From an uncultured Bacilli bacterium (GTDB lineage Bacteria > Bacillota_I > Bacilli_A > RF39 > UBA660), in contig CAKOIS010000002.1 of assembly GCA_934087065.1 (NCBI GenBank), positions 11,880-75,879 of the forward strand: 64,000 nucleotides of DNA, given 5' to 3'. The notes under the pieces were generated by a model, which saw nothing but the letters and a program-made list of their open reading frames with translations, had not been told where the DNA came from and did no database searches. A program made the position numbers and the translations under genes. Positions 3,351 through 46,931 of the stretch are shown here, piece after piece (positions within the stretch are counted from its first letter, which is position 1; every line of letters begins with the position of its first letter).

Positions 3351-4322
3351 ATGAAAGAATTTTTTAAAACAAATGGAAAAGGAATAATTATAGGTTTAGT
3401 AGTAGGTGTACTAGTAATGTATATTTTCTGGCCTAAGAGAATTGCTAAGTTAGAAAATGGAGAAGAAGTATCAATTACTGTTAAAGATCAAACTATAACA
3501 GCAGACTCACTTTACAGTGGATTAAAACTAAAATATGGTGCTAGTGAAATAGTACAACAAGTAGATAAATTAATACTTGATAAGAAGTACGAATTAACAG
3601 AAAGTGATTTAGAAGAAATCAATAAATCAAAAGAAAATTACTATTCAACATATAAAAGCTATTATGGAATAACAAAAGAACAATTTTTAAAACAAAATAA
3701 CTTTGACTCAGAAGAAGACTTTGTAGAATACTTAAAATTAGAGTATAAAAGAAACCTTTTAGTAGAAGAATACTTAAAAGCAAAAGTAACAGACGAAGAT
3801 ATTAAAGAATATTACAAAGAAAACTATTTTGCCCCATTTAAAGTGGAACACATACTAGTTAAAACTTCTTCTAGTGTTACAAAAGATGAAGCTAAAGCTA
3901 CTGCAGAAAAAATACTAAAAGCACTTAAAGGTGGAAGTTCTTGGGAAGATGTTAAAACTAAATACAAAGATGATATAACAACAGAAAACTTTACAGTAGA
4001 GTTTGACTCTAGTTTAGAAGAAAATTTTGTAAAAGCTGCTAAAAAACTAAAAGATAATAAATATACTACAAGCTTAGTAGAAACATCTTATGGTTACCAT
4101 ATTATATTAAGAACAGAAACAAAAGAAAAAGAAAGTGTTTCTGACATAAAAGATAGAGTAATAACTAAAGTTGTATCTCAAGAAAAAAACAAAGATACTA
4201 ATTATTACCAAAAGACTTTAGTAATAATGAGAAAAGAAGCTGGAATGGAAATAAAAGATACAGAACTAAAAAAAGTATACGATAATTTTGTAAGTAGTTT
4301 AGAAACAACAAAAAGTGAGTAA
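3351..4322 (+). CDS. membrane-anchored PpiC/parvulin-type peptidyl-prolyl isomerase (PrsA-like foldase)
   Basis: N-terminal TM helix. Parvulin-like core (HILVK...SYGYHII). K/E-rich, similar to PrsA family proteins. Confidence 0.6.
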   Translation: MKEFFKTNGKGIIIGLVVGVLVMYIFWPKRIAKLENGEEVSITVKDQTITADSLYSGLKLKYGASEIVQQVDKLILDKKYELTESDLEEINKSKENYYSTYKSYYGITKEQFLKQNNFDSEEDFVEYLKLEYKRNLLVEEYLKAKVTDEDIKEYYKENYFAPFKVEHILVKTSSSVTKDEAKATAEKILKALKGGSSWEDVKTKYKDDITTENFTVEFDSSLEENFVKAAKKLKDNKYTTSLVETSYGYHIILRTETKEKESVSDIKDRVITKVVSQEKNKDTNYYQKTLVIMRKEAGMEIKDTELKKVYDNFVSSLETTKSE

Positions 4323-4359
4323 AATCTCACTTTTTATATTGACAATACCTACTAAAAAA

Positions 4360-4567
4360 TGATAACATTATCTTGTAATAGTGAGAGTAACAAAAATTCT
4401 CAAGTTTTAAAAAACAAAGGAGAGATACACATGAAAACAAAATACACTTTAAAACCTAGTATGGGGGGGGGTTATTTAACTAGCGTAAATAACTATAGTT
4501 TTCATGTGCAATTAAATGGATAGAATAATTCTACCCATTTTTTCGTGTGTAAGAAAAGAGGTAAGGT
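4360..4567 (+). promoter_or_regulatory. conserved leader, copy 1: palindrome gataacattatc, uORF (4431-4484) containing a G9 tract (4463-4471), and a hairpin plus T-run (about 4505-4535)
   Basis: About 80% nucleotide identity with the leaders at 23205-23405, 33855-34049 and 45105-45302. The G-tract length differs between copies. Confidence 0.6.
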
Positions 4568-4810
4568 ATGACAAATGAAGAATTAAAGAAAATTGTTGGA
4601 AGAAACGTAAAAAAGTATAGGCTTATATATAATGCGTACAACAAAGAAAAACTTACTCAGAAAGACTTAGCTGAAAAGATAGGTGCAAAGACACCTCTTA
4701 TAGGTGCTTTAGAAAGCGAGAACAACAACATGGGAATAAGTATATATAACTTATATATGATAAGTAAAGTACTAAATGTACCAATAGAAAAGTTTTTTGA
4801 GGAGGAATAA
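4568..4810 (+). CDS. XRE-family helix-turn-helix transcriptional regulator (80 aa)
   Basis: HTH_3-like segment LTQKDLAEKIGAKTPLIGALE. Lies between the conserved leader and paralog 1, and only in this copy. Confidence 0.55.
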   Translation: MTNEELKKIVGRNVKKYRLIYNAYNKEKLTQKDLAEKIGAKTPLIGALESENNNMGISIYNLYMISKVLNVPIEKFFEEE

Positions 4811-4815: not shown

Positions 4816-7308
4816 ATGAAGAATAAAAAAGGAATGATATATGGAGTACTATTAATGACTTGTTTAGTAATAGGTTTATCTTATGGAGCATTTATATTTA
4901 GTACAGATAAATATAGAAGTAGTGAATTATTAATAAGTAAGTTAAACTATAGTATAGATATACAAGAAGACGGAAGTAATAAGTCTACAATTAATGGAAG
5001 TTCAGTAACAGTACCAGCTAGTACTAAAGTATATTTAAATATTACTTTAACAAGTGTAAATGAAATAGATAGTAAATATACTTTAGCATATAAAACTAGC
5101 ACAAACGCTAAAGTAGAGTACTCAGATAGAACACCATGGAACACACAAGGAGTAATAAAAGGAATAGACAGTAACACTTATTCAAAAAAGATAAGAGTAG
5201 TAATAGATAACACAAATATCTCAACACCATCTACAGTAAACTTTCAAGTATATGGTGGATACTCATTTAACTCATATGCAAATATAGAACTAACTGATGG
5301 ATATGTATCAGTAAGTGGACCATACACAGAAGTTGCAACAAACATAGGAAATAGACTAGTAGATATAATAGAAAGTGATACAAGTTGTTTAACAAGTAAT
5401 TCTAACACTTGCTTGTATGGTGGAGAGAACATTAAAAACTATGTACAATACCCAGAAGACAATGACAAAACAAAGAACTTATGGAGAATAATAGGAAGTT
5501 ATCAAATAGAAGATCAAACACTACCAAAACTAATAAGTCAAAGTACAAGTAGTACTAGTACTTCAACACTAACAACAGACTTAACAAGTTTCTATAACAC
5601 ATTAGAAGATAAAGAAGTATTAGTACAACAAACAAATAAATTTAATTGTTTTACTAATACTTGTGTAGAAAGCACTTACAACAATATTGGCTTACTAACA
5701 GACTATGAATATAATCAAATAGGTGGAGTAAACTCATACTTAGCAACTACAGAAAAATATTACATAAATAGTTCTAGCGGAATAAAAGAAGTAACATCAA
5801 GTGGGATAACAAACCCAAGTAATACAAGTGGACTAAAACCAACAATATACTTACAAACTGGAGTACAAGTAACAGGAAGTGGAACAGTGAGTGACCCATA
5901 CATCATAAGTCCAGCAAGTGATATAAATTTAGTTGCTTATACATTAAATGGACAAGCAACAGATAAAAATTATGCAGATTTACTTAAAACAAATGTAGTA
6001 GATAAAGTAACATGTAAAAACGGAACAACAGCAACATGGGACAATACAGATTTTTCAATAAAATTAAAGAATATACATACACCAGACTATTGTACAATTG
6101 ATTTTGGAGATGGATACAGTGTTAGTTTAACAGCAACAAATGGTACAGTAAGTCCATCAAATATAACTGTAGGATATAATGGAAGTGCAAGTTTTACTGT
6201 AACACCTAACAGTGGATATAAACTAGAACTTGAAACAAACACATGTGGCGGAACACTATCAGGAAGTACATATACAATAAGTAATGTAACAAGTGCAAAA
6301 AGTTGTAGTATAACATTCAAGTCTTCTACACAAACATTATATGCTAAACTGCTTGCTGATAAATCAACAGTATTAACAAGAACAGACTTTAGTAAAGTTT
6401 TAACAAATGACAATACAAACACATTATATACAGGAACAGAGAATGGAACAACAGTATATTATTTTGCAGGGAATGCAACAGATAATTGGGTAAAGTTTGG
6501 AAAGAATGCAACTAATCAAGACTTATACTGGAGAATAATAAGAACAAACTCAGATGGTGGAGTAAGACTACTATACCATGGAACAAGTACTACAGCAACA
6601 GATGCGGTTATAAACACAAGTACAGCATTTAATACAACATATAATAACCCAATGTATGTAGGATATATGTATGGAACAAGCGGTTCATTAGTAAATAATA
6701 GAACAAATACAAATAATAGTACAATAAAAGGAATAATAGATACATGGTATGAAAATAATCTAAAAACTAACTATACAAAATACTTAAGTACAACAGCAGT
6801 ATATTGCAATGATAGAAGTAACCCAGCAGGTGGATATAACACTGGAGGTACAACATTCTACTATGGTGGATATACACGATTAATAACAAATAAAACACCA
6901 ACATATGACTGTACAGACACTAACGATAAATTCACAGTAGACACAAGTACAGGAAACGGGAAACTAACATACCCAATAGCATTAATGACAGCAGACGAAG
7001 TAAGTTTTGCAGGTGGACTAGCGGGAACAAACGCACCAACATGGTATTATTATAATAGTGCAAAGGGTAGCTCAACAGGTGACACCAGGTGGTGGCTGTT
7101 GTCTCCTTACTATTGGAGTAGCGGCCACGCTTACGTGTTTCGCGTGTACGGTTCGTCCTACCCTGGCCGCTTGAACTACAACAACGTCAACTACACCGCT
7201 CTTGGTGTTCGTCCGGCAGTTTCTCTCAAATCTTGTATCAAGACAAGTGGAGGAGATGGCTCGGCAAACGCACCATACACAATAGAAGAAAGTACAAGTG
7301 GGTGCTAA
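4816..7308 (+). CDS. secreted/surface protein, paralog 1 (830 aa). N-terminal signal anchor and S/T-rich linker. The C-terminal half is homologous to paralogs 2-4 and ends in an adenine-depleted hypervariable domain (WWLLSP...GVRPAVSLKSC)
   Basis: RBS gaggagg. The C-terminal ~330 aa align with ORFs 23406, 34050 and 45303. Terminal CLec/DUF1566-like pattern (YW..S...AY.V.F.V.G....GVRP). Confidence 0.8.
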   Translation: MKNKKGMIYGVLLMTCLVIGLSYGAFIFSTDKYRSSELLISKLNYSIDIQEDGSNKSTINGSSVTVPASTKVYLNITLTSVNEIDSKYTLAYKTSTNAKVEYSDRTPWNTQGVIKGIDSNTYSKKIRVVIDNTNISTPSTVNFQVYGGYSFNSYANIELTDGYVSVSGPYTEVATNIGNRLVDIIESDTSCLTSNSNTCLYGGENIKNYVQYPEDNDKTKNLWRIIGSYQIEDQTLPKLISQSTSSTSTSTLTTDLTSFYNTLEDKEVLVQQTNKFNCFTNTCVESTYNNIGLLTDYEYNQIGGVNSYLATTEKYYINSSSGIKEVTSSGITNPSNTSGLKPTIYLQTGVQVTGSGTVSDPYIISPASDINLVAYTLNGQATDKNYADLLKTNVVDKVTCKNGTTATWDNTDFSIKLKNIHTPDYCTIDFGDGYSVSLTATNGTVSPSNITVGYNGSASFTVTPNSGYKLELETNTCGGTLSGSTYTISNVTSAKSCSITFKSSTQTLYAKLLADKSTVLTRTDFSKVLTNDNTNTLYTGTENGTTVYYFAGNATDNWVKFGKNATNQDLYWRIIRTNSDGGVRLLYHGTSTTATDAVINTSTAFNTTYNNPMYVGYMYGTSGSLVNNRTNTNNSTIKGIIDTWYENNLKTNYTKYLSTTAVYCNDRSNPAGGYNTGGTTFYYGGYTRLITNKTPTYDCTDTNDKFTVDTSTGNGKLTYPIALMTADEVSFAGGLAGTNAPTWYYYNSAKGSSTGDTRWWLLSPYYWSSGHAYVFRVYGSSYPGRLNYNNVNYTALGVRPAVSLKSCIKTSGGDGSANAPYTIEESTSGC
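7090..7227 (+). other. putative DGR variable region (VR) of paralog 1
   Basis: A-depleted, GC-rich stretch in an AT-rich gene. The codons that vary against paralogs 2-4 are NNC (tac, cac, cgc, aac, acc). Conserved scaffold codons lack A. A conserved 3' boundary (gtttctctcaaatcttgtgtcaagacaag) contains a small inverted repeat. Confidence 0.55.
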
Positions 7309-7492: not shown

Positions 7493-8845
7493 CTAAAACT
7501 CTACTGTTTCTACATTGCTTTGTATTTGATTATTTATTTGTTGTACTTGCTGTGTTACTTGTGGAGTAGGTTGCTGCTGTGGTGTTTCTTTTATACTGTG
7601 GGCTTTTTGTGCCATCTTTAGGTTTGCAACTAAGTTATCGTCTTTGTAAGCTGTCATATCATTTTCTAAGTCAACTATCTTTAGTATTTCTTCAAATGAT
7701 GTTTCTCCTTCAACAACTTTGTTTAACCCATCTTGTAATAGTGTAACAACTTCTCCAGTATAAACTAAATCTCTTAGAACGTGTTTAGGAGCATTATTAG
7801 TAATTGCGTCTTTTATTTTTTCATTCATTACTAGTACTTCTAGTATTGCAAGTCTTCCTCTATAACCATGGTTACATCTAGGACAGCCTTCTTTATTTGC
7901 AACATACATTTCATTTATATCTTTTCCTATAACTGTTTTAAATACTTGTTTTTCATATTCTGTAGTTTGTCTTTTAATCATACAGTTAGGACATAATTTT
8001 CTAGCAAGTCTTTGACTTATTATTCCTTCAAGTGAGCTACCAAGTAAGTATCTTTCTACATCCATATCAGTAAGTCTTTCAATAGTATTAAGTGAGTTAT
8101 TAGTGTGTAGTGTACTAAGAACTAAGTGTCCAGTAATTGAAGCACGTACGGCAATTCTAGCTGTTTCATCATCACGAATTTCTCCGATCATTATTATATT
8201 AGGGTCTTGTCTTAAAATACTTCTTAAAATAGTAGCAAATGTAAGACCAATTTCAGTTTGAGTTTGAACTTGGTTAATACCAGCAATATCCATTTCAACT
8301 GGGTCTTCAACTGTTATGATGTTAACTTCTTCAGTATTAAGCTTTTGAAGAATAGAGTACAAAGTAGTACTTTTACCAGTTCCAGTAGCACCAGTAACTA
8401 AGATAATTCCATTAGGTATTCTAATTAATTTATTAATCTTTTCCATCGCGTCTTTACTAAAGCCTAAGTTATCAAGTCCAGCTAAACTCATAGAGTAGTC
8501 TAGAATTCTTATAACTATTTTTTCTGCATTATTTGTAGGTAGTGTACTTACACGCAAATCAAGTAGTCTATCTCCAATTTTACTCTTAATCGCACCATCT
8601 TGAGGAAGACGCGTTTCCATTATATTCATACCGGCTATCATTTTGATACGACTTATCATATTTCTTTTATATTTACTAGGGACTATACTGTAATCACTTA
8701 ATATACCATCAATTCTAAAACGAATTTTCAAAGAGTCTTTAGATGGGTCAAAGTGAATATCACTTGCGCCCTTATTAACTGCGTCTATTATAATTTCATT
8801 TGCTATTTCAACAATAGGTAATTTTTCAAAATTAAATTCTTTCAT
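7493..8845 (-). CDS. pilB: type IV pilus assembly ATPase (PilB/GspE family)
   Basis: Walker A GATGTGKSTT. GspE-type Asp/His boxes. Tetracysteine C-x-x-C...C-x-x-C motif. 450 aa. Confidence 0.85.
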   Translation of the reverse strand: MKEFNFEKLPIVEIANEIIIDAVNKGASDIHFDPSKDSLKIRFRIDGILSDYSIVPSKYKRNMISRIKMIAGMNIMETRLPQDGAIKSKIGDRLLDLRVSTLPTNNAEKIVIRILDYSMSLAGLDNLGFSKDAMEKINKLIRIPNGIILVTGATGTGKSTTLYSILQKLNTEEVNIITVEDPVEMDIAGINQVQTQTEIGLTFATILRSILRQDPNIIMIGEIRDDETARIAVRASITGHLVLSTLHTNNSLNTIERLTDMDVERYLLGSSLEGIISQRLARKLCPNCMIKRQTTEYEKQVFKTVIGKDINEMYVANKEGCPRCNHGYRGRLAILEVLVMNEKIKDAITNNAPKHVLRDLVYTGEVVTLLQDGLNKVVEGETSFEEILKIVDLENDMTAYKDDNLVANLKMAQKAHSIKETPQQQPTPQVTQQVQQINNQIQSNVETVEF

Positions 8846-9091: not shown

Positions 9092-9454
9092 ATGAAAAAT
9101 AAAGGTTTTACTTTAGTTGAAGTAATTGCAGTTATTGCTTTAATTGCAGCTTTGGTTTTACTAGTAGTCCCAAAACTAGCAGACATGGATACGAAAAGCA
9201 AAGAAAAGATGTATAATGCAAAAGTGACGGAAATTTTATCAGGTGCTTATAAGTATGGAACAGATAATATTGATAACTTAACAAATGAATGCTTAGATGT
9301 AACAGTTGGTACTTTACTAAAACTAGGATATGTTAAATCAGATGATAATTCTGGTTTCTATGTGACTAATCCTAAAAATAATGAGTCAATGAATAACTTA
9401 ATTATATGTGTTAAATATGAAAATGGGAAAGTAGTAACTAATGTTAGTAATTGA
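9092..9454 (+). CDS. type IV prepilin-like protein (class III signal, KGFTLVEV)
   Basis: N-terminus MKNKGFTLVEVIAVIALIA has a G-F-T-L-x-E prepilin peptidase site followed by a hydrophobic helix. 120 aa. Confidence 0.75.
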   Translation: MKNKGFTLVEVIAVIALIAALVLLVVPKLADMDTKSKEKMYNAKVTEILSGAYKYGTDNIDNLTNECLDVTVGTLLKLGYVKSDDNSGFYVTNPKNNESMNNLIICVKYENGKVVTNVSN

Positions 9455-10316
9455 TAACTTTTTAAGATATTTGAAAGAATATAAAAACTATAGCGATTTA
9501 ACCATAAAGAGTTATAGCATAGACTTAAGGGAGTTTAGTGAGTACGTAAAAAAAGATTTAACTAGTGTTACTAAGGAAGATATTAAAAAGTATTTAAATT
9601 ATTTATTTGTTAAAGAAGACAAAAATAAAACAGTAAGTAGGAAGATTAGTACTTTAAAAAGCTTTTATAAATTTTTAAAGGAAAACGATGTTATTACTAT
9701 TAACCCAGCATCAAATATAAAATATCCTAAAAAAGAAAAGTCTTTACCAAAGTTTATTCCTTATAATGAGTTAGAAAGTATGATTAATGTAAGTAAAGAA
9801 GGAAAGTTTGGGGTAAGAAATAACCTTATAATTGAGTTATTATATGCAACAGGTACTAGAGTTAGTGAACTTGTTAGTATTAAATTAAGTGATATTGATT
9901 ATGATAATAAAAGTATTAGGATATTAGGAAAAGGAAGCTATGAGAGAACTGTTTTTTATGGAGACTATGCATGCGAATTACTTGACATTTATATAAATGG
10001 TTTAAGAAAAGAACTATTAGGTGGTAAACAAAATGTCTACTTGTTACTTAATAAAAATGGTGATAATATAACTACTAGAGGTATAGCAAAGATAATAGAT
10101 AATATTATAAAGGAAACCTCTATTAAAGTAAAAGTTAGTCCACATACTTTAAGACATACTTTTGCAACACATTTACTTGATAATGGATGTGATTTAAGAA
10201 GTGTACAAGAACTTCTTGGACATAAGAATATCAATACAACAGAAGTGTATACTCATGTTACAAGTGAGAGGTTAAAGGATGTATATTTTAAAAGTCATCC
10301 AAGAGGGAGGTTATAA
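9441..10316 (+). CDS. tyrosine site-specific recombinase, XerC/XerD family
   Basis: C-terminal catalytic box HTLRHTFATHLL...LGHKNINTTEVYTHV with R-H-R-Y residues. 291 aa. Start overlaps the pilin gene by 14 nt. Confidence 0.8.
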   Translation: MLVIDNFLRYLKEYKNYSDLTIKSYSIDLREFSEYVKKDLTSVTKEDIKKYLNYLFVKEDKNKTVSRKISTLKSFYKFLKENDVITINPASNIKYPKKEKSLPKFIPYNELESMINVSKEGKFGVRNNLIIELLYATGTRVSELVSIKLSDIDYDNKSIRILGKGSYERTVFYGDYACELLDIYINGLRKELLGGKQNVYLLLNKNGDNITTRGIAKIIDNIIKETSIKVKVSPHTLRHTFATHLLDNGCDLRSVQELLGHKNINTTEVYTHVTSERLKDVYFKSHPRGRL

Positions 10317-23002: not shown

Positions 23003-23209
23003 ATGAATTTAACATATCAAAACAAAACTCTATATATAGATCTAGTAGGAGATGTGAACATAACAGAAGTAACAAAGAAAGTCACAAGTATTAGTGATAC
23101 ATACAAAATAAATAACTTAGTAGTTAATACAGATGAGGCATTCATTACTGACTACAAAAAAGCAAAACTAAAAAAAATAATAAGTAACACTCTTGACAAC
23201 CCTAATTAA
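23003..23209 (+). CDS. hypothetical small protein (68 aa)
   Basis: RBS agaggaaaa. No recognisable motif. Confidence 0.25.
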   Translation: MNLTYQNKTLYIDLVGDVNITEVTKKVTSISDTYKINNLVVNTDEAFITDYKKAKLKKIISNTLDNPN

Positions 23210-23405
23210 AAAATGATAAGATTATCTTGTAATAAAGATAGGAAGTGAAGCACATGGAAGTTAATTCTTTAGTACAAAACAAAGTACAAATTGGGGGGGG
23301 GTTATTTAAATAGTATAAATAACTATAGTTTTTCATGTGCAATTATATGGATAGAATAAGTCTACCCATTTTTTCGTGTCTTAAAAAGAAAGGAGTGCAT
23401 TAAAT
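23205..23405 (+). promoter_or_regulatory. conserved leader, copy 2: palindrome gataagattatc, uORF from ATG 23255, G10 tract 23293-23302, hairpin plus T-run about 23346-23372
   Basis: Homologous to the leaders at 4360, 33855 and 45105. Confidence 0.6.
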
Positions 23406-24905
23406 ATGCAAAGGAAACAATTAACACTTGTAATAGTAAGCTTACTAGTAGTAGTACTAAGTGTATCACTTGCTTACTTTACAGCACAAATAATAGGAAA
23501 GGGAAAAGATGTAAGTGTAACAAGCGCAAACCTACAAATAGTATTTACAGATAGTGATGGAGCTTTAACAGAAACTGATATAGAACCTGGCTGGACTAAA
23601 ACTAAAACATTTACTATTAAAAATGATACTAAGATAGAATACAAATATAATATAGTAATAAAAGACTTATTAAATACTTTTGTAACTAATGGATACTTAA
23701 AGTACAAGATAACTAGTACAAATAATGGATATAATATGACTGAGTTTAAAGATATTCCAAAGTCTAGTGCACCTAAAGATACAATATTAGCTTATAGTGT
23801 AGTAATACCTAATGGAGTAACACAAAGTTATACAATTGAATTTAAGTATGCAAACGATGAAAGTGTAGACCAAAGTGATGATATGGGTAAGAAACTAAGT
23901 GGAACACTATTTATAACTGAGGAAACAGAAGATCCAAACAAAACACTATATAATCAATTACTTGTAGACAAATCAAAAGTATTAACAAGAACAGACTTTA
24001 GTAAAGTTTTAATAGATAATAATACAAACACATTATATACTTCTACTGAAGATAGTAAAACAGTATATTATTTTGCAGGGAATGCAACAGATAACTGGGT
24101 AAAGTTTGGAAAGAATGCAAGTAATCAAGACTTGTACTGGAGAATAATAAGAACAAACTCAGATGGTAGTGTAAGACTTCTTTACCACGGAACAAGTACT
24201 ACAGCAACAGATGCATATATTGGTGAATCAGCATTTAATAATAGTAGTTATACTAATATAGCATATGTAAGTTATATGTACGGAAGTACAGGAAGTATAG
24301 CAAATGCTAGAACTAACCAAAAAAACTCTAGTACAATAAAAGACAAAATAGATAACTGGTATAAAATCAACTTAGAAGCAAAAGGTTATACAAAATACTT
24401 AAGTACAACAGCAGTATATTGTAATGATAGAACATATGCAGTATCTGGAGATACATACTTTGGAGCATACACAAGACTAATAACAAATAAAACACCAAGT
24501 TATGACTGTGCAACAACAGAAGACAAATTCACAGTAGACACAAGTACAGGTAACGGAAAACTAACATATCCAATAGCATTAATGACAGCAGACGAAGTAA
24601 GTTTTGCAGGTGGACGATATGGTACAAATGCACCAACATGGTATTATTATAATAGTGCAAATGGTAGTTCTACAGAATCAAATGCTTGGTGGTTGTTGTC
24701 TTCTCGCAATTGGAATGGCGGCGACGCTATTGTGTTCTTCGTGTATGGTTCGTCCGAACAACCTGGCAATTTGAGCAACAGTAGGGTTGACGGCACTTAC
24801 GGTGTGCGTCCAGCCTTATCACTAAAATCTTGTGTAAAATATGCAAGTGGAGATGGCTCAGCAAGTGACCCATACACAATAAAAGAAACTACAAATGGAT
24901 GCTAA
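23406..24905 (+). CDS. secreted/surface protein, paralog 2 (499 aa) with C-terminal A-depleted hypervariable domain
   Basis: N-terminal signal anchor MQRKQLTLVIVSLLVVVLSVSLA. First ~170 aa nearly identical to paralogs 3 and 4. C-terminus WWLLSS...GVRPALSLKSC. Confidence 0.85.
   Translation: MQRKQLTLVIVSLLVVVLSVSLAYFTAQIIGKGKDVSVTSANLQIVFTDSDGALTETDIEPGWTKTKTFTIKNDTKIEYKYNIVIKDLLNTFVTNGYLKYKITSTNNGYNMTEFKDIPKSSAPKDTILAYSVVIPNGVTQSYTIEFKYANDESVDQSDDMGKKLSGTLFITEETEDPNKTLYNQLLVDKSKVLTRTDFSKVLIDNNTNTLYTSTEDSKTVYYFAGNATDNWVKFGKNASNQDLYWRIIRTNSDGSVRLLYHGTSTTATDAYIGESAFNNSSYTNIAYVSYMYGSTGSIANARTNQKNSSTIKDKIDNWYKINLEAKGYTKYLSTTAVYCNDRTYAVSGDTYFGAYTRLITNKTPSYDCATTEDKFTVDTSTGNGKLTYPIALMTADEVSFAGGRYGTNAPTWYYYNSANGSSTESNAWWLLSSRNWNGGDAIVFFVYGSSEQPGNLSNSRVDGTYGVRPALSLKSCVKYASGDGSASDPYTIKETTNGC
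24687..24824 (+). other. putative DGR variable region (VR) of paralog 2
   Basis: A-depleted. Variable NNC/NNT codons (cgc, aat, ggc, gac, att, ttc, agc, aac, agt, gac, ggc, act, tac). One extra codon relative to copies 1 and 3. Confidence 0.5.
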
Positions 24906-27605: not shown

Positions 27606-28454
27606 TTGATGAATGTTTTAATTAAAAGTTTTCTTGTTAATTTATTTTTAACTATATTAAAATTACTAGGAAGTGTCGTGTCTAACTCTAAAACACTTCT
27701 AGCTGATAGTATTCACTGTATGAGTGATATGTCAACTGATTTAATAAGCATTATAGGTACTAAAATATCTAATAAAAAGCCAGACTTAAATCATCCGTAT
27801 GGACATGGTAAAATAGAATATTTAACTAGTATAATAATGAGTTTCTTTATAATAAGTTTAGGTATAAGTATTTTATTTAATTCATTTAATGGAAAAACTG
27901 TAGTACCTAATATGTATGCGATTATTGTATTACTAATAACTATAGTTGTAAAATATATATTAAGTTCTTATCTTTTTAAAAAGGGCAAACTACTTAATAG
28001 TAACATTATTAAAACAAATGCTATAGAAAGCAGATATGACACATATAATTCTATTTTAGCACTTATATTTATTATAATAACTATAATTGGAAGTGATAAT
28101 GATATACTAAAATACTTTGATAAAGTAGGTAGTGTAGTAATGAGTTTACTTACTATTAAAGTAGGAATAGAAGTACTATTAAAAAATACAAGTAGTATAC
28201 TAGGAGAAGTAGAAGAAGATAAGAGTATCTTATCAACTGTAGAAGATATTATTAAAAGTAAAGACTATAAAGTAAGAAGACTATCTTTACTTAAATATGG
28301 TTCATACTATGATGCTACTATAGATATATTATTAGATAAGAATATAACATTAGAAAATCTATATAATATAGAAAAGAAAATAAAAAGAGATCTAAAAAGA
28401 AGCGATATGTCTATTAGATATGTTACAGTAAACTTTAAACCAAAAAATAAATAA
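27606..28454 (+). CDS. cation diffusion facilitator family transporter
   Basis: HCMSDMSTDLISIIG...HPYGHGKIEYL CDF signature. Six predicted TM segments plus a cytoplasmic C-terminal domain. Confidence 0.7.
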   Translation: MMNVLIKSFLVNLFLTILKLLGSVVSNSKTLLADSIHCMSDMSTDLISIIGTKISNKKPDLNHPYGHGKIEYLTSIIMSFFIISLGISILFNSFNGKTVVPNMYAIIVLLITIVVKYILSSYLFKKGKLLNSNIIKTNAIESRYDTYNSILALIFIIITIIGSDNDILKYFDKVGSVVMSLLTIKVGIEVLLKNTSSILGEVEEDKSILSTVEDIIKSKDYKVRRLSLLKYGSYYDATIDILLDKNITLENLYNIEKKIKRDLKRSDMSIRYVTVNFKPKNK

Positions 28455-33760: not shown

Positions 33761-33854
33761 TCTCATTTCGTAAAAACTTGCAAATGCAGGAAAGTTCGGA
33801 ATGAGTTTTTATAAAATATGTAAAACATGTGAAAAAAACTTGAAATATAGTGCT

Positions 33855-34049
33855 TTTTTTGATAAGATTATCTTGTAATAAAGATAGGAAGTGAAGTACA
33901 TGAAAATTAACTCTTTAGTACAAAATAAAGTACAAAATGGGGGGGGGTTATTTAACTAGCATAAATAACTATAGTTTTTCATGTGCAATTAAATGGATAG
34001 AATAAGTCTATCCATTTTTCGTGTCTTAAAAAGAAAGGAGAGCATTAAT
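33855..34049 (+). promoter_or_regulatory. conserved leader, copy 3: palindrome gataagattatc, uORF from ATG 33900, G9 tract 33939-33947, perfect 11-bp hairpin plus T-run about 33991-34026
   Basis: Homologous to the other three leaders. The hairpin aaatggataga-ataag-tctatccattt is followed by tttcgtg. Confidence 0.6.
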
Positions 34050-35531
34050 ATGCAACGAAAACAATTAACACTTGTAATAGTAAGCTTACTTGTAGTAGTA
34101 CTAAGTGTATCACTAGCTTACTTTACAGCACAAATAATAGGAAAGGGGAAAACTGTAGACGTTAGTAGTGCTAACTTACAAATAGTATTTACAGATAGTG
34201 ATGGAGCTTTAACAGAAACTGATATAGAACCAGGCTGGAGTGCAACTAAAACATTTACTATTAAAAATGATACTAAGACAGAATACAAATATAATATAGT
34301 AATAAAAGACTTATTAAATACTTTTGTAACAGAAGGATATTTACAATACAAAATAACTAGTACAAACGATGGATATAATATGACTGAGTTTAAAGATATT
34401 CCAAAGTCTAGTATAGCAACAGATACAATACTAGCTTATAGTGTAGTAATACCTAATGGAGTAACACAAAGTTACACAATTGAATTTAAGTATGCAAACG
34501 ATGAAAGTGTAGACCAAAGTGATGATATGGGTAAGAAACTAAGTGGAACATTATTTATAACTGAAGGAACAGAAGATCCAAATAAAACACTATATAATCA
34601 ATTACTTGTAGACAAATCAACAGTATTAACAAGAACAGACTTTAGTAAAGTTTTAACAGATAATAATACAAACACATTATATACTTCTACTGAAGACAGT
34701 AAAACAGTATATTATTTTGCAGGGAATGCAACAGATAACTGGGTAAAGTTTGGAAAGAATGAAAGTAATCAAGATTTATACTGGAGAATAATAAGAACAA
34801 ACTCAGATGGTGGAGTAAGACTACTATATCATGGCACAAGTACTACAGCAACAGACGCATATATAGGAATATCAAAATTTAATACAGAATATAATGATCC
34901 AATGTATGTAGGATATATGTATGGAACAAGCGGATCACTAGTAAACAACAGAACAAATATAAGTGATAGTACAATAAAAACAACACTAGATAATTGGTAT
35001 AAAGATAATTTGAATACAAATTATGGAAAATACTTAAGTACAACAGCAGTATATTGTAACGATAGAAGTACATCAAATGATACATCCTTTGGAGCATTCA
35101 CAAGACTAAAAACAAATAAAACACCAAGTTATGACTGTGCAGCAACAGAAGACAAATTCACAGTAGATAATAGTACAGGCAACGGTAAACTAACATACCC
35201 AATAGCCTTAATGACAGCAGACGAAGTAAGTTTTGCAGGTGGACTATGGGCAACAAATGCTTCTACTTGGTATTATTATAATAGTGCAAACGGAAGCTCA
35301 ACAGGCTCAAACTGGTGGTGGTTGTTGTCTCCTCGCCTTTGGATTGGCGGCTACGCTAGCGTGTTCAACGTGAACGGTTCGTCCGGCCCTGGCCGCTTGT
35401 ACTTCGACGACGTCAACAACTCTTACGGTGTGCGTCCGTCAGTTTCTCTCAAATCTTGTGTCAAGACAAGTGGTGGAGATGGCTCAGCAAGCACACCATA
35501 CACAATAGAAGAAACTTCAAGTGGATGCTAA
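34050..35531 (+). CDS. secreted/surface protein, paralog 3 (493 aa; start moved from 33993 to the conserved MQRKQ ATG)
   Basis: RBS aaaggagag plus ATG 34050 is the position conserved in paralogs 2 and 4. C-terminus WWLLSP...GVRPSVSLKSC. Confidence 0.85.
   Translation: MQRKQLTLVIVSLLVVVLSVSLAYFTAQIIGKGKTVDVSSANLQIVFTDSDGALTETDIEPGWSATKTFTIKNDTKTEYKYNIVIKDLLNTFVTEGYLQYKITSTNDGYNMTEFKDIPKSSIATDTILAYSVVIPNGVTQSYTIEFKYANDESVDQSDDMGKKLSGTLFITEGTEDPNKTLYNQLLVDKSTVLTRTDFSKVLTDNNTNTLYTSTEDSKTVYYFAGNATDNWVKFGKNESNQDLYWRIIRTNSDGGVRLLYHGTSTTATDAYIGISKFNTEYNDPMYVGYMYGTSGSLVNNRTNISDSTIKTTLDNWYKDNLNTNYGKYLSTTAVYCNDRSTSNDTSFGAFTRLKTNKTPSYDCAATEDKFTVDNSTGNGKLTYPIALMTADEVSFAGGLWATNASTWYYYNSANGSSTGSNWWWLLSPRLWIGGYASVFNVNGSSGPGRLYFDDVNNSYGVRPSVSLKSCVKTSGGDGSASTPYTIEETSSGC
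35313..35450 (+). other. putative DGR variable region (VR) of paralog 3
   Basis: 17 A in about 138 nt within an AT-rich genome. All but one A lie in NNC codons (att, tac, agc, aac, aac, tac, gac, gac, aac, aac, tac). Scaffold codons (tgg tgg ttg ttg tct cct ... ggt tcg tcc ... cct ggc cgc ttg ... ggt gtg cgt ccg) are A-free. Confidence 0.55.
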
Positions 35532-37592: not shown

Positions 37593-40184
37593 ATGGCAAA
37601 AAAGAAAACTGAAGAAAATATTGTAGAAAAAATATATGATTACACTCTAGAAGAAATAATGGGAGATAGGTTTGGAAGATATGCAAAGAGTATTATACAA
37701 GACCGTGCTTTACCAGATGTTAGAGATGGCTTAAAGCCAGTTCAAAGAAGAATACTTTGGAGTATGTATGAAAGTCATAACACATATGATAAACCTTTTA
37801 GGAAAAGTGCTAAAGCAGTTGGAGATATCATGGGACATTATCACCCACATGGAGATAGTTCTATATATGATGCGTTAGTAAGGCTTAGTCAAAGATGGAA
37901 AATGCGTGAACCACTTGTAGAAATACACGGAAATAATGGTTCAATTGATGGAGATGGTCCAGCAGCAAGCCGTTATACTGAGGCAAGACTTTCTAAAATA
38001 GCAAATGTAATGCTATCAGATATAAATAAAGATGCTGTTAAAATGACGCTTAACTATAGTGATGAAGATTTAGAGCCTACTGTTTTACCAGCACACTTTC
38101 CAGCACTATTAGTTAATGGGTCTACTGGAATAAGTGCAGGTTATGCAACAAACATTCCACCACATAATTTATCTGAAGTAATAGATGCGACTATAAAAAG
38201 AATTGATAGTCCTAACTGCAGACTTGATACTATACTAGAAATAATAAAAGGACCTGACTTTCCAACAGGTGGAGTAGTTGAAGGTAAAGAAGGGCTTATT
38301 CAAGCATATACTACTGGTAAAGGGAAAGTAGTATTAAAAGCTAACTATGAAATTATAGAAGAAAAAGGTAAAAAACAAATTCTTATAAAAGAAATACCTT
38401 ATGAAGTGTTAAAAGAACAATTAAAGAAAAAGATAGAAGATATTAAGAGTGATAAAAAAATTGATGGTATAACTGATGTAATTGATGAGTCTGATAGAAC
38501 TAACATGGCTAGATTAGTAATTGAACTTAAAAAAGATACTGATGCTAACTTGATAATCAATTATTTACTAAAAAATACTGACTTACAAATAAACTATAAC
38601 TTTAATGTTGTTGCAATAGATAATAAAAGGCCTAAAACTTTAGGGCTTCTTGAAATATTAGATGCATTTATTCTTCATAAAGAAGAAGTTGTAATAAATA
38701 GAAGTAAGTTTGATTTAGAGCATTCTAAAAAAAGACTTCATATAGTAGAAGGCTTTATAAAAGCACTAGATATATTAGATGAAGTAATTAAAACTATTAG
38801 GAAAAGTAAGAATAAGGCTGATGCAATAGAAAACTTAGTTAAAGAGTATGATTTTACTACTGAACAGGCTACTGCTATTGTTATGATGCAGTTATATAAA
38901 CTTACTAATACTGATGTTACTGACTTACAAAATGAACATGCTAACTTACTTGAACTTATTAAATATTTAACAAGTGTAATAAATGATGAAAGTGTTCTAA
39001 AGGGAGTAATGAAAGATGAACTTAGGAGTATTAAAAAAGAGTTTGCAACTCCTAGAAGAACTATTATTAAAGATGAGATTACAGAAATTAAGATAGATGA
39101 GTTAAGTATGATACCTAAAGAAGACTTTATAGTAAGTGTAAGTAAAAGTGGATATATAAAGAAATTAAGTGTTAAAGTATATAATGCTAATAATGATAGT
39201 GAATACGTATTAAAAGAAAAAGATTATTTAATAGGTTTATACAAAATTAATAATATTGATACAATTATACTAATTACTAACTTAGGAAATTATTGTTATT
39301 TACCAGTAAGAGATATTACTGAATGTAAATATAAAGATATTGGTAAACATATAAGTAGTTATATTCCTTTATCTGAAGGAGAAACTATTATTGCAAGTTT
39401 TGGTATAAAGAATTTTGACTCAAGAACTATAACACTATTTAGTAAAGATGGTCTTGTAAAACAAACTGAATTATCTAATTTACCAGTTACAAGATACTCT
39501 AAACCTATGACTATATTTAAACTTAAAGATAATGATGAAGTGGTGAGTGCAAGTATAAATGATGGAGTGGTGTATATAGTTACAGAAAACGGGTTTGCTC
39601 TTAAGTTTAATAAAGAAGAAATACCTGTTGTTGGACTAAAAACGAGTGGAGTTAAAGGTATTAAACTAGTGAGTGATGCTGTAGTAAGTGCATTTGTAAC
39701 TAATGAGAACCACGAATACATTACTATATTTACTGATAAAAATACTGCTAAAAGAGTAAAACTTGAAGAAATAGATTATAGTAAGAGAAGTTTAAAAGGA
39801 GATAATATTTTACATAGTCCTAAATCAAAGAAATACAAAATAACTGAATGCTATGCAGGAAGTTCTAAAACTAATTATGGTCTTATAAGGGAAGAGACTG
39901 AAACAATTAAGTCAAGTGATATAAGCATAATGGATAAATCTAGTACGGGTAGTACAATATCTAAAAAAGACTTAACAGATGTGTTTAAAGAAGCAAGACT
40001 TAAAGTAATAGACGATGCACAACCAAGTACTGCTGAACATGAAGAAAACAGTAGTGGAGAAACGCCTAAAAAGGAAGAAAAAACTCAAGTAACAAAAGAA
40101 GAACCTAAAGAAGATAAAAAACAAGAAGAACAAGTTTATGAAACTTTAACAATGAGTGACTTCTTTGACGAATTCAAGATATAG
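37593..40184 (+). CDS. type IIA topoisomerase subunit A, probably ParC (topoisomerase IV); no GyrA box was found
   Basis: Catalytic Tyr region (AASRYTEARLS). The C-terminal beta-pinwheel lacks a QRGGKG-type GyrA box. Long K/E-rich C-terminal tail. Confidence 0.8.
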   Translation: MAKKKTEENIVEKIYDYTLEEIMGDRFGRYAKSIIQDRALPDVRDGLKPVQRRILWSMYESHNTYDKPFRKSAKAVGDIMGHYHPHGDSSIYDALVRLSQRWKMREPLVEIHGNNGSIDGDGPAASRYTEARLSKIANVMLSDINKDAVKMTLNYSDEDLEPTVLPAHFPALLVNGSTGISAGYATNIPPHNLSEVIDATIKRIDSPNCRLDTILEIIKGPDFPTGGVVEGKEGLIQAYTTGKGKVVLKANYEIIEEKGKKQILIKEIPYEVLKEQLKKKIEDIKSDKKIDGITDVIDESDRTNMARLVIELKKDTDANLIINYLLKNTDLQINYNFNVVAIDNKRPKTLGLLEILDAFILHKEEVVINRSKFDLEHSKKRLHIVEGFIKALDILDEVIKTIRKSKNKADAIENLVKEYDFTTEQATAIVMMQLYKLTNTDVTDLQNEHANLLELIKYLTSVINDESVLKGVMKDELRSIKKEFATPRRTIIKDEITEIKIDELSMIPKEDFIVSVSKSGYIKKLSVKVYNANNDSEYVLKEKDYLIGLYKINNIDTIILITNLGNYCYLPVRDITECKYKDIGKHISSYIPLSEGETIIASFGIKNFDSRTITLFSKDGLVKQTELSNLPVTRYSKPMTIFKLKDNDEVVSASINDGVVYIVTENGFALKFNKEEIPVVGLKTSGVKGIKLVSDAVVSAFVTNENHEYITIFTDKNTAKRVKLEEIDYSKRSLKGDNILHSPKSKKYKITECYAGSSKTNYGLIREETETIKSSDISIMDKSSTGSTISKKDLTDVFKEARLKVIDDAQPSTAEHEENSSGETPKKEEKTQVTKEEPKEDKKQEEQVYETLTMSDFFDEFKI

Positions 40185-40293
40185 TGCAAAATAAAGTACT
40201 TGATTTGATTAGCAAAATTTGTTATAATTAAATTGTCTTAAAGACATATAATATAATGGACAAACAAAAAGAGCAATACCTAGCTTTTGCCTG

Positions 40294-40551
40294 CTAGGTG
40301 TTCCTCAGTCCATATTGTGTTCTGAAGAACACCGTTTCATTAGTTGATACGGTGTTCGTTTTTGATTAAAAGTATTGGTTACTTTTAATCTCTGTGATTC
40401 GTATAGTGATCTAGCACAGTTATGATCACTACAAGTATAATTAAATACTCCATATTTGGGGTTAATTCCTTTCATATGACTCATACAGACCACCTCCATT
40501 CCTAAATTAATAGTAATTTTCGGACTGAGGAAAGACCACCTAACTACTAGG
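40294..40551. mobile_element. small (~260 bp) element bounded by ~18-20-bp imperfect inverted repeats (ctaggtg-ttcctcagtcc / ggactgaggaaagaccacctaactactag); possible MITE or IS remnant
   Basis: The terminal inverted repeats are visible directly. The interior has an atypical composition and a 64-aa minus-strand ORF with no clear function. It also shares the 19-mer gtatagtgatctagcacag with 40782-40800. Confidence 0.3.
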
Positions 40552-40867
40552 TATTACTCTGGTACTAATTATACCATATAGTAATAGGTTAAACAAGCAA
40601 ACAATGTGAAAATATTAAAAAATATTTTACAAAATATGGTTGACTAAGTGTGTAAACTTTGATACAATTAAGTTGTCATTAAGAAACAAAGTATTAATGA
40701 TAAAAAGTAGTATTAAGCATTGCAATGTTAGACGATATTGAATATTTACGTTTCTTTGCTAGAAACTACTTTCTGCTGTTTGTATAGTGATCTAGCACAG
40801 CTAGGTCATTTTTTATTTCATTTTAAGTCAAGAATTATATCTTTCCAAAAGATTTTCGCATTCACAC

Positions 40868-40896
40868 TTGCATTTCTAGGCATTTTATGGTAAAAT
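40868..40896 (+). promoter_or_regulatory. sigma-A promoter (TTGCAT-17-TAAAAT) plus ~100-nt leader upstream of rplU (possible L21 autoregulatory leader)
   Basis: Consensus spacing. A long 5' UTR precedes the L21 RBS aaaggaggt. Confidence 0.45.
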
Positions 40897-41004
40897 TTAT
40901 TTGTTTCTCAAGGCGTATTCACTTGAAAAACCGCTCAGAATAGGTTGTAAAAGGTTAAACCTTACCTCAATGGCGCGTCTTATTATTTAAAGGAGGTATG
41001 AAAA

Positions 41005-45084: not shown

Positions 45085-45104
45085 AGGTACTTGAAAAGAG
45101 TATC

Positions 45105-45302
45105 TTTTTTTGATATCATTAATTATGTAATAAAGATAGGAAGTGAAGTACATGAAAATTAACTCTTTAGTACAAAATAAAGTACAATATGGGGGGGGTT
45201 ATTTAAATAGTATAAATAACTATAGTTTTTCATGTGCAATTAAATGGATAGAATAAGTCTATCCATTTTTTCGTGTCTTAAAAAGAAAGGAGAGCATTAA
45301 AT
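45105..45302 (+). promoter_or_regulatory. conserved leader, copy 4: uORF from ATG 45152, G8 tract 45191-45198, perfect hairpin plus T-run about 45239-45272
   Basis: Homologous to the other leaders. With 8 G the uORF stays in frame through the left arm of the hairpin and stops at the TAA in its loop. Confidence 0.6.
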
Positions 45303-46931
45303 ATGCAACGAAAACAATTAACACTTGTAATAGTAAGCTTACTTGTAGTAGTACTAACTGTATCACTAGCTTACTTTACCGTACAAATAATAGGAAAGGG
45401 GAAATCTGTAGACGTAACAAGTGCTAACTTACAAATAGTATTCACAGATAGTGATGGAGCTTTAACAGAAACTGATATAGAACCTGGCTGGACTAAAACT
45501 AAAACATTTACTATTAAAAATGATACTAAGATAGAATACAAATATAATATAGTAATAAAAGACTTATTAAATACTTTTGTAACTAATGGATACTTAAAGT
45601 ACAAGATAACTAGTACAAATAATGGATATAATATGACTGAGTTTAAAGATATTCCAAAGTCTAGTGCACCTAAAGATACAATATTAGCTTATAGTGTAGT
45701 AATACCTAATGGAGTAACACAAAGTTATACAATTGAATTTAAGTATGCAAACGATGAAAGTGTAGACCAAAGTGATGATATGGGTAAGAAACTAAGTGGA
45801 ACTCTTTATATAGAGAAAGGGACTTTACCAACGTTAAGTGAGAAACTTTTTGCTGATAACCCAACAATACAAACAAGAAGTTCATTTGATGCAGTATTTA
45901 CTGAAACAAACACAGGAACTTTATATAAAGCAACAGAAAGTATAGCAGGTAGTCCTGCAAAAGATGTGTATTACTTTGCAGGAGATGCAAAGAATAACTG
46001 GGTTAATTTTGGAAAATATCAAACAGATTATGTTGTCTATAGAGGTTATTCTGAAACAGGCAGTAAATACATAGATTATTTGACAATGGATGCATGTACT
46101 AGTGCCTCAAATTATAATATTAATTGTACTGAACAAATATATTGGAATAAGGGTAATGATATATACTGGAGAATAGTAAGAACAAACTACGATGGAAGTG
46201 TAAAACTTCTATATGCGGGAAATAGCCCTGATACAACAAGTGGATACATAGGAACAAGTGCATTCAATAGCACAAATAATGATTCAATGTATGTAGGATA
46301 TAAATATGGTACAAGTGGGACTCTAGCAAATAACAGATTAAATACAAATGATAGTACAATAAAAACTTTTATAGATAACTGGTATAGTAATAACTTAACA
46401 AGTTATACAAAATATATAAGTACAGAAGCAGTATATTGTAATGACAGAAAAGCACTAAGCTATAGTATAAGTAGTTCTTTTGATTACTATGTACAAACAA
46501 GACTAGGTGCAGGAAATCCAACATATGATTGTGAAGATAGTAGTGATGCATTTTCAGGAAGTAATAGTGAAGCAAAATTAACACACCCAATAGGACTAAT
46601 GACAGCAGATGAAATAACATATGCAGGTGGTAAAGATACTACAGGCTTAACAAGTCCATATGCATGGTATTATCTAAACAGTGCTGGGGAAAGTATAACC
46701 GGAACACAATGGTGGTGGTCCTTGTCACCTCGACTCTGGAATGGTGTCATTTCGTACGTTTGGTTCGTTTTTGGTTCTTCTATTCCGGGTGCCCTTTTGA
46801 GCACCGCCGATGTGAACTTTGAGAATGGTGTTCGCCCCGCCATTTCTCTCAAATCTTGTGTCAAGACAAGTGGTGGAGATGGTTCAGCTAGTAACCCATA
46901 CACAATACAAGAAACAGCAAGTGGTTGTTAA
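45303..46931 (+). CDS. secreted/surface protein, paralog 4 (542 aa), with a more divergent C-terminal half and an A-depleted hypervariable terminal domain
   Basis: The N-terminal 170 aa are nearly identical to paralogs 2 and 3. The C-terminal domain WWWSLSP...GVRPAISLKSC is related but more diverged. Confidence 0.85.
   Translation: MQRKQLTLVIVSLLVVVLTVSLAYFTVQIIGKGKSVDVTSANLQIVFTDSDGALTETDIEPGWTKTKTFTIKNDTKIEYKYNIVIKDLLNTFVTNGYLKYKITSTNNGYNMTEFKDIPKSSAPKDTILAYSVVIPNGVTQSYTIEFKYANDESVDQSDDMGKKLSGTLYIEKGTLPTLSEKLFADNPTIQTRSSFDAVFTETNTGTLYKATESIAGSPAKDVYYFAGDAKNNWVNFGKYQTDYVVYRGYSETGSKYIDYLTMDACTSASNYNINCTEQIYWNKGNDIYWRIVRTNYDGSVKLLYAGNSPDTTSGYIGTSAFNSTNNDSMYVGYKYGTSGTLANNRLNTNDSTIKTFIDNWYSNNLTSYTKYISTEAVYCNDRKALSYSISSSFDYYVQTRLGAGNPTYDCEDSSDAFSGSNSEAKLTHPIGLMTADEITYAGGKDTTGLTSPYAWYYLNSAGESITGTQWWWSLSPRLWNGVISYVWFVFGSSIPGALLSTADVNFENGVRPAISLKSCVKTSGGDGSASNPYTIQETASGC
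46710..46850 (+). other. putative DGR-type variable region (VR) of paralog 4, a divergent class
   Basis: About 12% A. The conserved 3' boundary tttctctcaaatcttgtgtcaagacaagtggtggagatgg is shared with copies 1 and 3. Confidence 0.45.

Follow-up and report, generated by a model that had tools for sequence, protein, structure and literature searches.

In the trp, his and pheA operons, an intrinsic terminator forms or fails to form according to where the ribosome stands on an upstream open reading frame (ORF) for a leader peptide. Neisseria, Haemophilus, Campylobacter and Helicobacter carry poly-G/C tracts of 8-12 residues, in which slipped-strand mispairing turns surface proteins ON and OFF stochastically and reversibly. 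A hypermutable tract may also switch a regulator, and with it potentially a set of genes, as in phase-variable regulators and phasevarions such as the Mod methyltransferases, FlgRS of Campylobacter jejuni and the poly-C tract of Bordetella pertussis bvgS. In the pil1 and pil3 loci of Streptococcus gallolyticus, a leader peptide gene gains or loses GCAGA repeats, which shifts the position at which the ribosome stops; stops at least about 28 nucleotides (nt) upstream of the terminator lead to low expression, and stops within or beyond the hairpin lead to high expression through ribosome-induced destabilization (Danne et al., 2014; PMC3894217). Here we describe a 64-kb stretch of DNA from an uncultured Bacilli bacterium of the RF39 lineage (contig CAKOIS010000002.1; hereafter the window), in which four homologous leaders, each carrying a run of G residues, precede a family of paralogous genes. 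The leader termed copy 1 is followed by a gene for a helix-turn-helix (HTH) protein of the XRE family and then by paralog 1. We consider it probable that positions 4339-4567 constitute a phase-variable, ribosome-dependent transcription attenuator controlling the operon formed by XRE (4568-4810) and paralog 1 (4816-7308).

Like pil1, copy 1 possesses a leader ORF with a Shine-Dalgarno (SD) sequence and ATG, a polymorphic repeat inside this ORF, a predicted terminator, and a stop position that depends on the reading frame. Literature searches on poly-G leader-peptide attenuators or phase variation in RF39 returned nothing except Danne et al. (2014), and the S. gallolyticus pili are the one case of repeat-slippage leader-peptide attenuation described in the literature searched.

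Tract length, reading frame and RNA structure of the leaders

Runs of eight or more G residues occur at four sites in the window (seven overlapping matches, against 0.03 matches expected by chance), and all four sites lie within homologous leaders. Across ten assemblies with near-identical flanks, namely the window and nine of the ten loci retrieved by an exact match to the XRE protein, the copy 1 tract is G9 in four, G10 in four and G11 in two. Scanning metagenome contigs for the leader pattern added another 120 loci (individual loci carry L numbers below). Tract length is polymorphic in nine of the 16 leader groups represented by multiple instances, including every group with at least five. 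Long and short reading-frame states were observed at 38:66, about 1:2, which is the expectation for free switching. Given the variation from G9 to G11 between otherwise near-identical assemblies, the copy 1 leader is very probably phase-variable, as the original prediction had proposed.

The consequence of a change in tract length is a change in the position of the stop codon. The tract lies within an upstream ORF (uORF). In copy 1 the G9 frame runs on to TAG 4521-4523, within the terminator 5' arm. With G10 or G7 the frame closes at TAG 4481, and with G8 or G11 at TAA 4477; each of these stops lies at least 31 nt upstream of that arm. Exactly one frame runs from the tract into the terminator in all 13 leaders checked by hand and in 117 of the 125 unique leaders. 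Among the unique leaders the long-frame stop falls in the 5' arm (45), the loop (55), the 3' arm (2) or beyond the hairpin (24), and the other frames stop 1-57 nt past the tract (median 11), a median of 34 nt ahead of the 5' arm. The phase of the long frame varies among leader types, and within the window G9 is long in copy 1 and short in copies 2 and 3, with G8 long in copy 4. A simple rule detected an SD sequence plus ATG in 95 of the 125 unique leaders. At one locus (L028, 5860-6000; in UBA11492, the closest genome), a leader before an XRE gene carries ATGGAAGAATG... in place of the poly-G tract, and its 33-codon uORF is open as far as a TAA in the terminator loop. This leader, the sole tract-less case among 68 sites carrying this terminator motif, looks like a 'locked long-frame' variant.

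The leader RNA displays two conserved helices. The segment CACAUGAAAAC (4428-4438) is perfectly complementary to GUUUUCAUGUG (4498-4508), forming a duplex of -15.4 kcal/mol (z -5.0) that encloses the start codon of the uORF. This start-codon helix is rebuilt with other sequences in diverged leaders, always with the AUG included: as AAACTATGAGAG : CTCTCATAGTTT in L041 and L118, as ATGAAAAAGATAA : TTATCTTTTTCA in L045, and as TATATGAAAGCTT : AAGTTTTCATATG in L110. Register-shifted compensatory helices are found in L041, L045, L110 and L215, and one leader type, whose uORF is longer, pairs its post-tract segment with the SD region rather than with the start codon. The terminator helix shows compensatory changes in four of its ten pairs across leaders. 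In an alignment of 20 sequences, 90.9% of the cells belonging to the two helices are paired, whereas slid registers reach 63% at most; the observed covariation of the two helices was reached by none of 500 shuffles. No antiterminator helix (2:3) competing with the terminator appeared in the folds, in which the downstream half always gives the terminator. A covariance search of the leader against Rfam gave no match at the gathering threshold, the best E-value in 4300-4600 being 1.2.

Together, these features suggest the following sequence of events. Transcription would start at the TTGACA/TG-TAACAT promoter, and a ribosome would load at the strong SD sequence and AUG of the leader ORF, in which replication slippage would alter the length of the G tract and hence the reading frame. 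With 3n G residues in copy 1 (e.g. G9), the ribosome would proceed about 50 nt further into the terminator 5' arm. The hairpin could then not fold during the passage of RNA polymerase over the T-run, and transcription would continue into the operon. In the other two frames the ribosome would halt 31 nt or more short of the terminator, at TAA 4477 or TAG 4481, and transcription would end once the hairpin had formed. An untranslated leader would be closed by pairing of 4428-4438 with 4498-4508, which might confine uORF translation to a co-transcriptional window and keep the OFF state tight. In the ON state, copy 1 would produce a small HTH protein together with a hypervariable secreted protein. 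We infer that the long frame is ON by analogy with S. gallolyticus pil1, an assignment supported by L039, in which the TGA closing the long frame overlaps the main ATG, a layout of translational coupling.

The promoter and the remaining elements of copy 1 are listed with those of the other leaders in Table 1. Because the upstream prsA-like gene is terminated by the hairpin at 4308-4337, the leader requires a promoter of its own, and the one assigned here matches the consensus at 10 of 12 positions, contains the TG extension and is the top-scoring + strand promoter of the area in a promoter scan. A promoter alignment shows this -35/extended -10 arrangement to be kept across diverse leaders. The GAGA/TCTC arms of the hairpin in the 5' untranslated region (5' UTR) reappear in sister leaders, and the stem of hairpin 1 is rebuilt with another sequence in L007/L027 (ATTAAGA/TCTTAAT). 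The palindrome, uORF ATG (4431), G9 tract, hairpin and T-run that the original prediction had assigned to copy 1 are all present where it placed them. Its description of these elements as the same in copies 2-4 holds in that all four leaders are homologous, but the uORF and 5' UTR sequences of copy 1 differ.

Table 1. Coordinates of leader copy 1, its flanking genes and the other three leaders of the window
Feature	Position	Strand	Details
prsA-like gene (rotamase)	3351-4322	+	Upstream neighbour, co-directional
Hairpin with flanking T/A runs at the 3' end of the prsA-like gene	4308-4337	+	12-base-pair (bp) stem, symmetric; reported on the - strand by the scan
Sigma-70-type promoter	4339-4368	+	-35 TTGACA 4339-4344; 18-nt spacer; TG-extended -10 TAACAT 4363-4368
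5' UTR hairpin (GUGAGAG...UUCUCAA)	4382-4402	+	Predicted by folding
uORF SD sequence AAAGGAGAG	4416-4424	+	Strong; 8 nt 5' of the ATG
Segment A, CACAUGAAAAC	4428-4438	+	Holds the uORF AUG; pairs with A' in minimum-free-energy and centroid folds
Leader peptide ORF, G9 state	4431-4523	+	30 codons, encodes MKTKYTLKPSMGGGYLTSVNNYSFHVQLNG*; stop TAG within the terminator 5' arm; long frame, predicted ON
Poly-G tract	4463-4471	+	G9, hypermutable; Gly-Gly-Gly codons of the uORF
Hairpin 1 (TTATTTA-ACTAGCG-TAAATAA)	4472-4492	+	7 bp; holds short-frame stops TAA 4477-4479 (G8/G11) and TAG 4481-4483 (G7/G10)
Segment A', GUUUUCAUGUG	4498-4508	+	Complement of the uORF start region; conserved block TTTTCATGTG / GTTTTCATGTG
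Intrinsic terminator (AAATGGATAGAA / TAA / TTCTACCCATTT)	Hairpin 4514-4540, T6 4538-4543	+	Predicted; one A·C mismatch, -8.7 kcal/mol
XRE gene	4568-4810	+	80 residues, XRE/Cro-C1-type HTH; ribosome-binding site (RBS) GAGG 4558-4561
Paralog 1	4816-7308	+	830 residues; RBS GAGGAGG 4799-4805 inside the 3' end of XRE
Leader copy 2	23176-23405	+	Tract of nine G (23293-23301) in a short frame; predicted state OFF; abuts paralog 2 (23406-24905)
Leader copy 3	33822-34049	+	Tract of nine G (33939-33947) in a short frame; predicted state OFF; abuts paralog 3 (34050-35531)
Leader copy 4	45090-45302	+	Tract of eight G (45191-45198) in the long frame, whose stop TAA falls in the terminator loop; predicted state ON; abuts paralog 4 (45303-46931)

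Two further sequence features recur among the leaders. A mini-hairpin motif, GTACAAAAYAAAGTAC, lies just 5' of the G tract in the uORFs of copies 2-4 (23272-23287, 33918-33933 and 45170-45185); it is conserved at the nucleotide level across several otherwise diverged leader types, and copy 1 does not carry it. In many leader promoters (window 45086-45112; L104, L109 and L132), the -35 element TTGAAA sits in the loop of a GTACT...AGTAC hairpin that is followed by a T-run. Such a hairpin would terminate the upstream gene and overlap with the promoter of the leader.

The XRE gene and its large paralog partner

The gene order sets copy 1 apart within the window. As originally described, the copy 1 leader is followed by XRE and then by paralog 1, whereas the leaders of copies 2-4 continue straight into the RBS and ATG of their paralogs (23406, 34050 and 45303). 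The gap between the T-run and the XRE ATG is 24 nt (4544-4567), which leaves no room for a promoter belonging to XRE itself, and 5 nt separate the XRE stop codon from the ATG of paralog 1. A + strand scan between 4545 and 4816, the check that bears on an independent XRE promoter, found neither promoter nor terminator. Given this spacing and the lack of internal signals in the scan, it is very likely that a transcription factor is placed here under a phase-variable leader and co-transcribed with the paralog, and this part of the earlier proposal stands.

The XRE ORF matches the Pfam family HTH_3 (PF01381) with 28.5 bits (cutoff 23; E 1.6e-6). Profile matches in the Protein Data Bank (PDB) include lambda cI, C.BclI and SinR, and weak similarity extends to the PADLOC 'Control_protein' models; the resemblance to lambda cI, C.BclI and SinR is of a generic kind, shared by XRE HTH proteins at large. 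The identical protein occurs on at least 22 human-gut metagenome contigs. The family is narrow, with 133 matches at 57-93% identity, all of which come from uncultured gut Bacilli. Among these, the genome 'Bacillota bacterium UBA11492' is the closest, and others are labelled Clostridium sp. CAG:628, Mollicutes or Bacilli metagenome-assembled genomes. UBA11492 encodes at least five XRE copies with 85-94% identity to the XRE protein of the window, and the 64-kb window itself contains no second XRE homolog. More distant members of the family (48-57% identity; L073, L076, L080-L103) are arranged as XRE(+)/XRE(-)/XRE(+) triplets with no paralog nearby.

The original prediction regarded XRE as a gene inserted between leader and paralog. 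The distribution of the two genes argues otherwise. A tblastn map shows XRE adjoining a paralog with a P1N-type N-terminal region in at least 45 loci of related genomes, most of which lack a poly-G tract. Both gene orders occur: XRE precedes the paralog in the window, L015-L023, L026 and L028, with a spacing of 2-5 nt recurring in L015-L023, and follows it in L011-L014, L039, L041, L045, L047-L068 and others. The arrangement of leader, XRE and P1N paralog is itself recurrent. Of 29 unique leaders that precede XRE, the next gene is P1N-type in all 24 for which the sequence continues, and never of the P2N type found in copies 2-4. Four poly-G leaders drive operons in which the paralog precedes XRE. 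Because leader types are shuffled relative to the type of the downstream gene (L024, for example, has a copy-2-type uORF before XRE), the portable add-on is the leader and not XRE. Judging from these comparisons, XRE is an old, conserved regulatory partner of the large P1N-type paralog, and the leader has been placed ahead of the pair in this lineage.

Operons without the leader may offer a view of how such modules are controlled elsewhere. In a species whose XRE is 86% identical to that of the window, an operon of XRE, a protein of about 800 residues and a protein of about 500 residues is preceded by a divergent HTH gene of 81 residues; its promoter spacer (L016 type) has a 17-bp palindrome, and no leader is present. 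The leaderless XRE-paralog operons of L016 (3893-4000), L030 (5900-6000), L026 and L029 share a divergent HTH gene of about 81 residues and a locus-specific 17-bp palindrome, and the palindromes of L016 (ATAGCCTAATAGGCTAT) and L030 (TAGAAGAAATTCTTCTA) differ within the same layout. This CI/Cro-like layout may be the ancestral control of XRE-paralog modules.

What XRE does at copy 1 can be considered against this background, and the candidate role that appears most likely is that of a repressor or controller acting on a locus-specific operator. A purely local controller of its own operon, with no wider regulon, in the manner of a restriction-modification (R-M) C protein or of Cro in a CI/Cro pair, is a possibility to which we give appreciable though minority weight. 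It draws on the full-length similarity to C.BclI and the PADLOC 'Control_protein' models, on the compact operons in which XRE lies directly upstream or downstream of the gene it accompanies, and on the relatives in which a promoter with a locus-specific palindrome lies between XRE and a divergent HTH gene. However, neither a C-box-like sequence nor a 17-bp palindrome is present in the promoter or leader of copy 1, copy 1 has no divergent partner, its upstream neighbour being the co-directional prsA-like gene, and the similarity to C proteins is no greater than that of any XRE HTH protein. We are more doubtful that P1N modules each export a near-identical XRE repressor when ON, such that the pooled XRE protein cross-regulates the paralog family and possibly other genes. 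If true, this would amount to a transcription-factor-based 'phasevarion' coordinating which hypervariable surface proteins are displayed.

A wider role had been proposed in the form of XRE acting back on a palindrome shared by the leaders. The sequence GATAACATTATC at 4361-4372 is an imperfect palindrome (GATAA-CA-TTATC) with 5-bp arms and a 2-nt non-symmetric centre, and the base at its centre varies by strain (C or G). On this proposal XRE would bind the GATAA(g/c)aTTATC palindromes of all four leader promoters, and copy 1 would be a hierarchical master switch acting on itself and on copies 2-4. The motif does occur in copies 1-3, with a diverged relative (GATATCATTAATTATG) in copy 4; it overlaps the -10 element, a typical repressor position, and the several nearly identical XRE paralogs (85-94%) of UBA11492 make cross-talk conceivable. 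Alignment of diverse leader promoters leaves the palindrome unsupported as an operator. Its left arm is accounted for by the extended -10 (TGaTAAsAT), kept in all leader promoters, and its right arm, around +1, is not kept in sister leaders likewise located before XRE genes (GATATTATTATAATG, GATAAGATTAATTATG, GTTATCATTAATTATG). Arms of 5 bp, spaced 7 bp from centre to centre, are short for an HTH dimer, and leaderless XRE operons carry unrelated 17-bp palindromes in their promoter spacers. Recurrence of the motif within the window reflects duplication of whole leaders, and with one mismatch allowed it is found four times against 1.24 expected by chance. A palindrome scan of all four leaders found arms of at most 5-6 bp (only 5 bp in 4290-4575), and the L016-type operator ATAGCCTAATAGGCTAT was absent from the window. 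We therefore regard a master switch of this kind as improbable. A fifth match to the palindrome, GATAAGAGTATC (28218-28229, one mismatch), lies inside a cation-efflux gene (27606-28454) with no leader around it and is most likely due to chance.

Paralog 1 possesses an N-terminal signal-like segment, the P1N-type N-terminal region and a shared C-terminal domain with a weak DUF6273 match. It is hypervariable between strains, with more than 120 clusters (at 90% identity) of homologs that are 85-92% identical to paralog 1 (P0121-P0240). We call these proteins surface or secreted proteins because of the signal-like segment and the hypervariability at the strain level. The occurrence of an identical XRE beside a variable paralog 1 agrees with a pairing of a conserved regulator and an exposed protein that diversifies. 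All four paralogs of the window end in ...SLKSC.K..GDGSA..PYTI.E...GC with a C-terminal Cys. Sequence searches of NCBIfam, PADLOC and PDB for the identity of the paralogs returned only the weak DUF6273 match and an immunoglobulin (Ig)-like stretch, and an AlphaFold2 model of paralog 1 from a 21-sequence alignment was unusable (predicted local distance difference test score, 43.5).

Some other features of the window were recorded alongside. Convergent with paralog 1 is a gene for an ATPase of the GspE/PilB/ComGA type (7493-8845, - strand), and nearby lie a ComGC-like prepilin gene (9092-9454, +) and an XerC/D-type recombinase gene (9441-10316, +). A possible fifth leader at 40184 was rejected, as it showed merely promoter-type similarity. 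The region 40230-40900, about 670 nt without long ORFs between a gyrA/parC-like gene and an L21 leader (Rfam RF00559, 40919-40990), contains TATAGTGATCTAGCACAG twice (near 40403 and 40774) and an extended -10 promoter of its own. It has no Rfam match and may encode an uncharacterised RNA.

Weighing the attenuator model

A number of points weigh against reading copy 1 as a ribosome-dependent attenuator. The model is drawn from sequence alone. Shuffling of the spacer yields 'exactly one long frame' with P ~0.53 per leader, many of the 125 unique leaders are related to one another, and among 19 sequence clusters the pattern is found in 14 against 8.6 expected from shuffles. The metagenome pattern preselected tracts of G8 or longer and ATAG...CTA terminators, so that the collection is biased. 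Homopolymer lengths in assemblies may carry sequencing or assembly error, and the lengths used here come from assemblies alone. The terminator of copy 1 is weak (-8.7 kcal/mol, with its A·C mismatch), and switching may therefore be leaky. Coupling between ribosome and RNA polymerase is reported to be poor in some Firmicutes, which would weaken ribosome-mediated antitermination. Finally, an operator for XRE was looked for in the window and none was found. The frame logic, modestly significant, backs the attenuator model without being proof by itself, and we use it jointly with the covariation, the tract polymorphism and the precedent of S. gallolyticus.

In a set of alternatives the reading frame has no part: the G tract might act through RNA structure, for example by pairing of the G run with CCCAUUUUUU on the 3' side of the terminator, it might act through transcriptional slippage, or the differences in length might be assembly noise around an ordinary constitutive attenuator. 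By inspection, the G run could indeed make G-C and G-U pairs with the 3' arm and the U-run; the statistic for frame logic is only modest, and with no Rfam family for the leader a ligand or protein sensor is conceivable. Against all three stands the organization of the leaders. A strong SD sequence and ATG place the tract within an ORF in most of them; the short frames stop almost at once, and the long frame always reaches the hairpin despite a phase that differs by leader type. The tract-less L028 leader retains the long ORF, length polymorphism is present in all leader groups with at least five instances, and the S. gallolyticus precedent was demonstrated to be translation-dependent. We accordingly rate these alternatives as unlikely. 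In a reversed polarity the short frames would be ON and the long frame OFF, for example if ribosomes that terminate within the hairpin hindered initiation at the XRE RBS. Such a polarity is most improbable, having no direct support beyond a long-frame stop that lies just 45 nt before the XRE ATG and facing short frames that leave terminator folding unhindered, the TGA/ATG overlap of L039, and the high expression that accompanies long leader peptides in S. gallolyticus.

Relation to known attenuators and phase-variable systems

The attenuator proposed for copy 1 resembles attenuators of the trp/his type in that the position of the ribosome on a leader ORF sets the formation of the terminator. 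Unlike those leaders, copy 1 has no runs of tRNA-sensing regulatory codons, its sole run being the GGG codons supplied by the tract, and no antiterminator helix was found in its folds. The input also differs, a metabolic signal in trp/his attenuation and a heritable frameshift here. In tracts of the Neisseria type, slippage takes place in the structural ORF, with a translational effect, or in the promoter spacer, with a transcriptional one. Here the tract is in a separate leader ORF and would act on termination, so that the structural genes are never frameshifted. With regard to phase-variable regulators and phasevarions, the regulator ORF at copy 1 stays intact, the switch is an upstream attenuator, and a regulon is only hypothetical.

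The XRE gene has counterparts of its own. R-M controller (C) proteins such as C.BclI (PDB 2b5a) are likewise XRE-type HTH proteins of about 80 residues, encoded directly upstream of, and co-transcribed with, the gene that they accompany, and the similarity spans the full length. In contrast to these systems, the copy 1 promoter lacks a C-box operator, and a secreted paralog takes the place of the nuclease. Relatives of the window locus (L016-L023, L026, L029 and L030) follow a CI/Cro-type plan, with XRE facing a divergent 81-residue HTH gene and a 17-bp palindrome in the promoter spacer. Copy 1 has neither the divergent partner nor the palindrome, and the poly-G attenuator occupies that position.

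The closest parallel is provided by pil1 and pil3. In both cases a promoter-proximal leader ORF with a slippage-prone repeat is followed by an intrinsic terminator ahead of structural genes, several copies are present per genome, and the target is a surface structure, putatively so in the present case. The repeat type clearly differs, a G homopolymer of 8-12 residues here and about 13-22 GCAGA units there, and we interpret the relation as one of analogy in mechanism rather than homology. Whereas one of three frames is long in the present leaders, out-of-frame changes in S. gallolyticus give long peptides. The same logic would have been built independently, with a homopolymer, at copy 1, and the system appears to be a homopolymer-based form, widespread in an uncultured gut lineage, of a known but rare mechanism. 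If this is confirmed, tract length modulo 3 becomes an ON/OFF code that can be scored directly in metagenomes of unculturable commensals; the XRE-bearing modules would place a transcription factor under stochastic control, and the co-ordination of the paralogs would become a testable question. In copy 1 the first controlled gene is a transcription factor, a further departure from the pil loci. What is new relative to pil1 and pil3 is the homopolymer, the additional covarying helix that sequesters the start codon of the uORF, and the scale of the family, in which a portable leader module, known in at least 125 distinct versions, has spread ahead of hypervariable secreted proteins in uncultured human-gut Bacilli.

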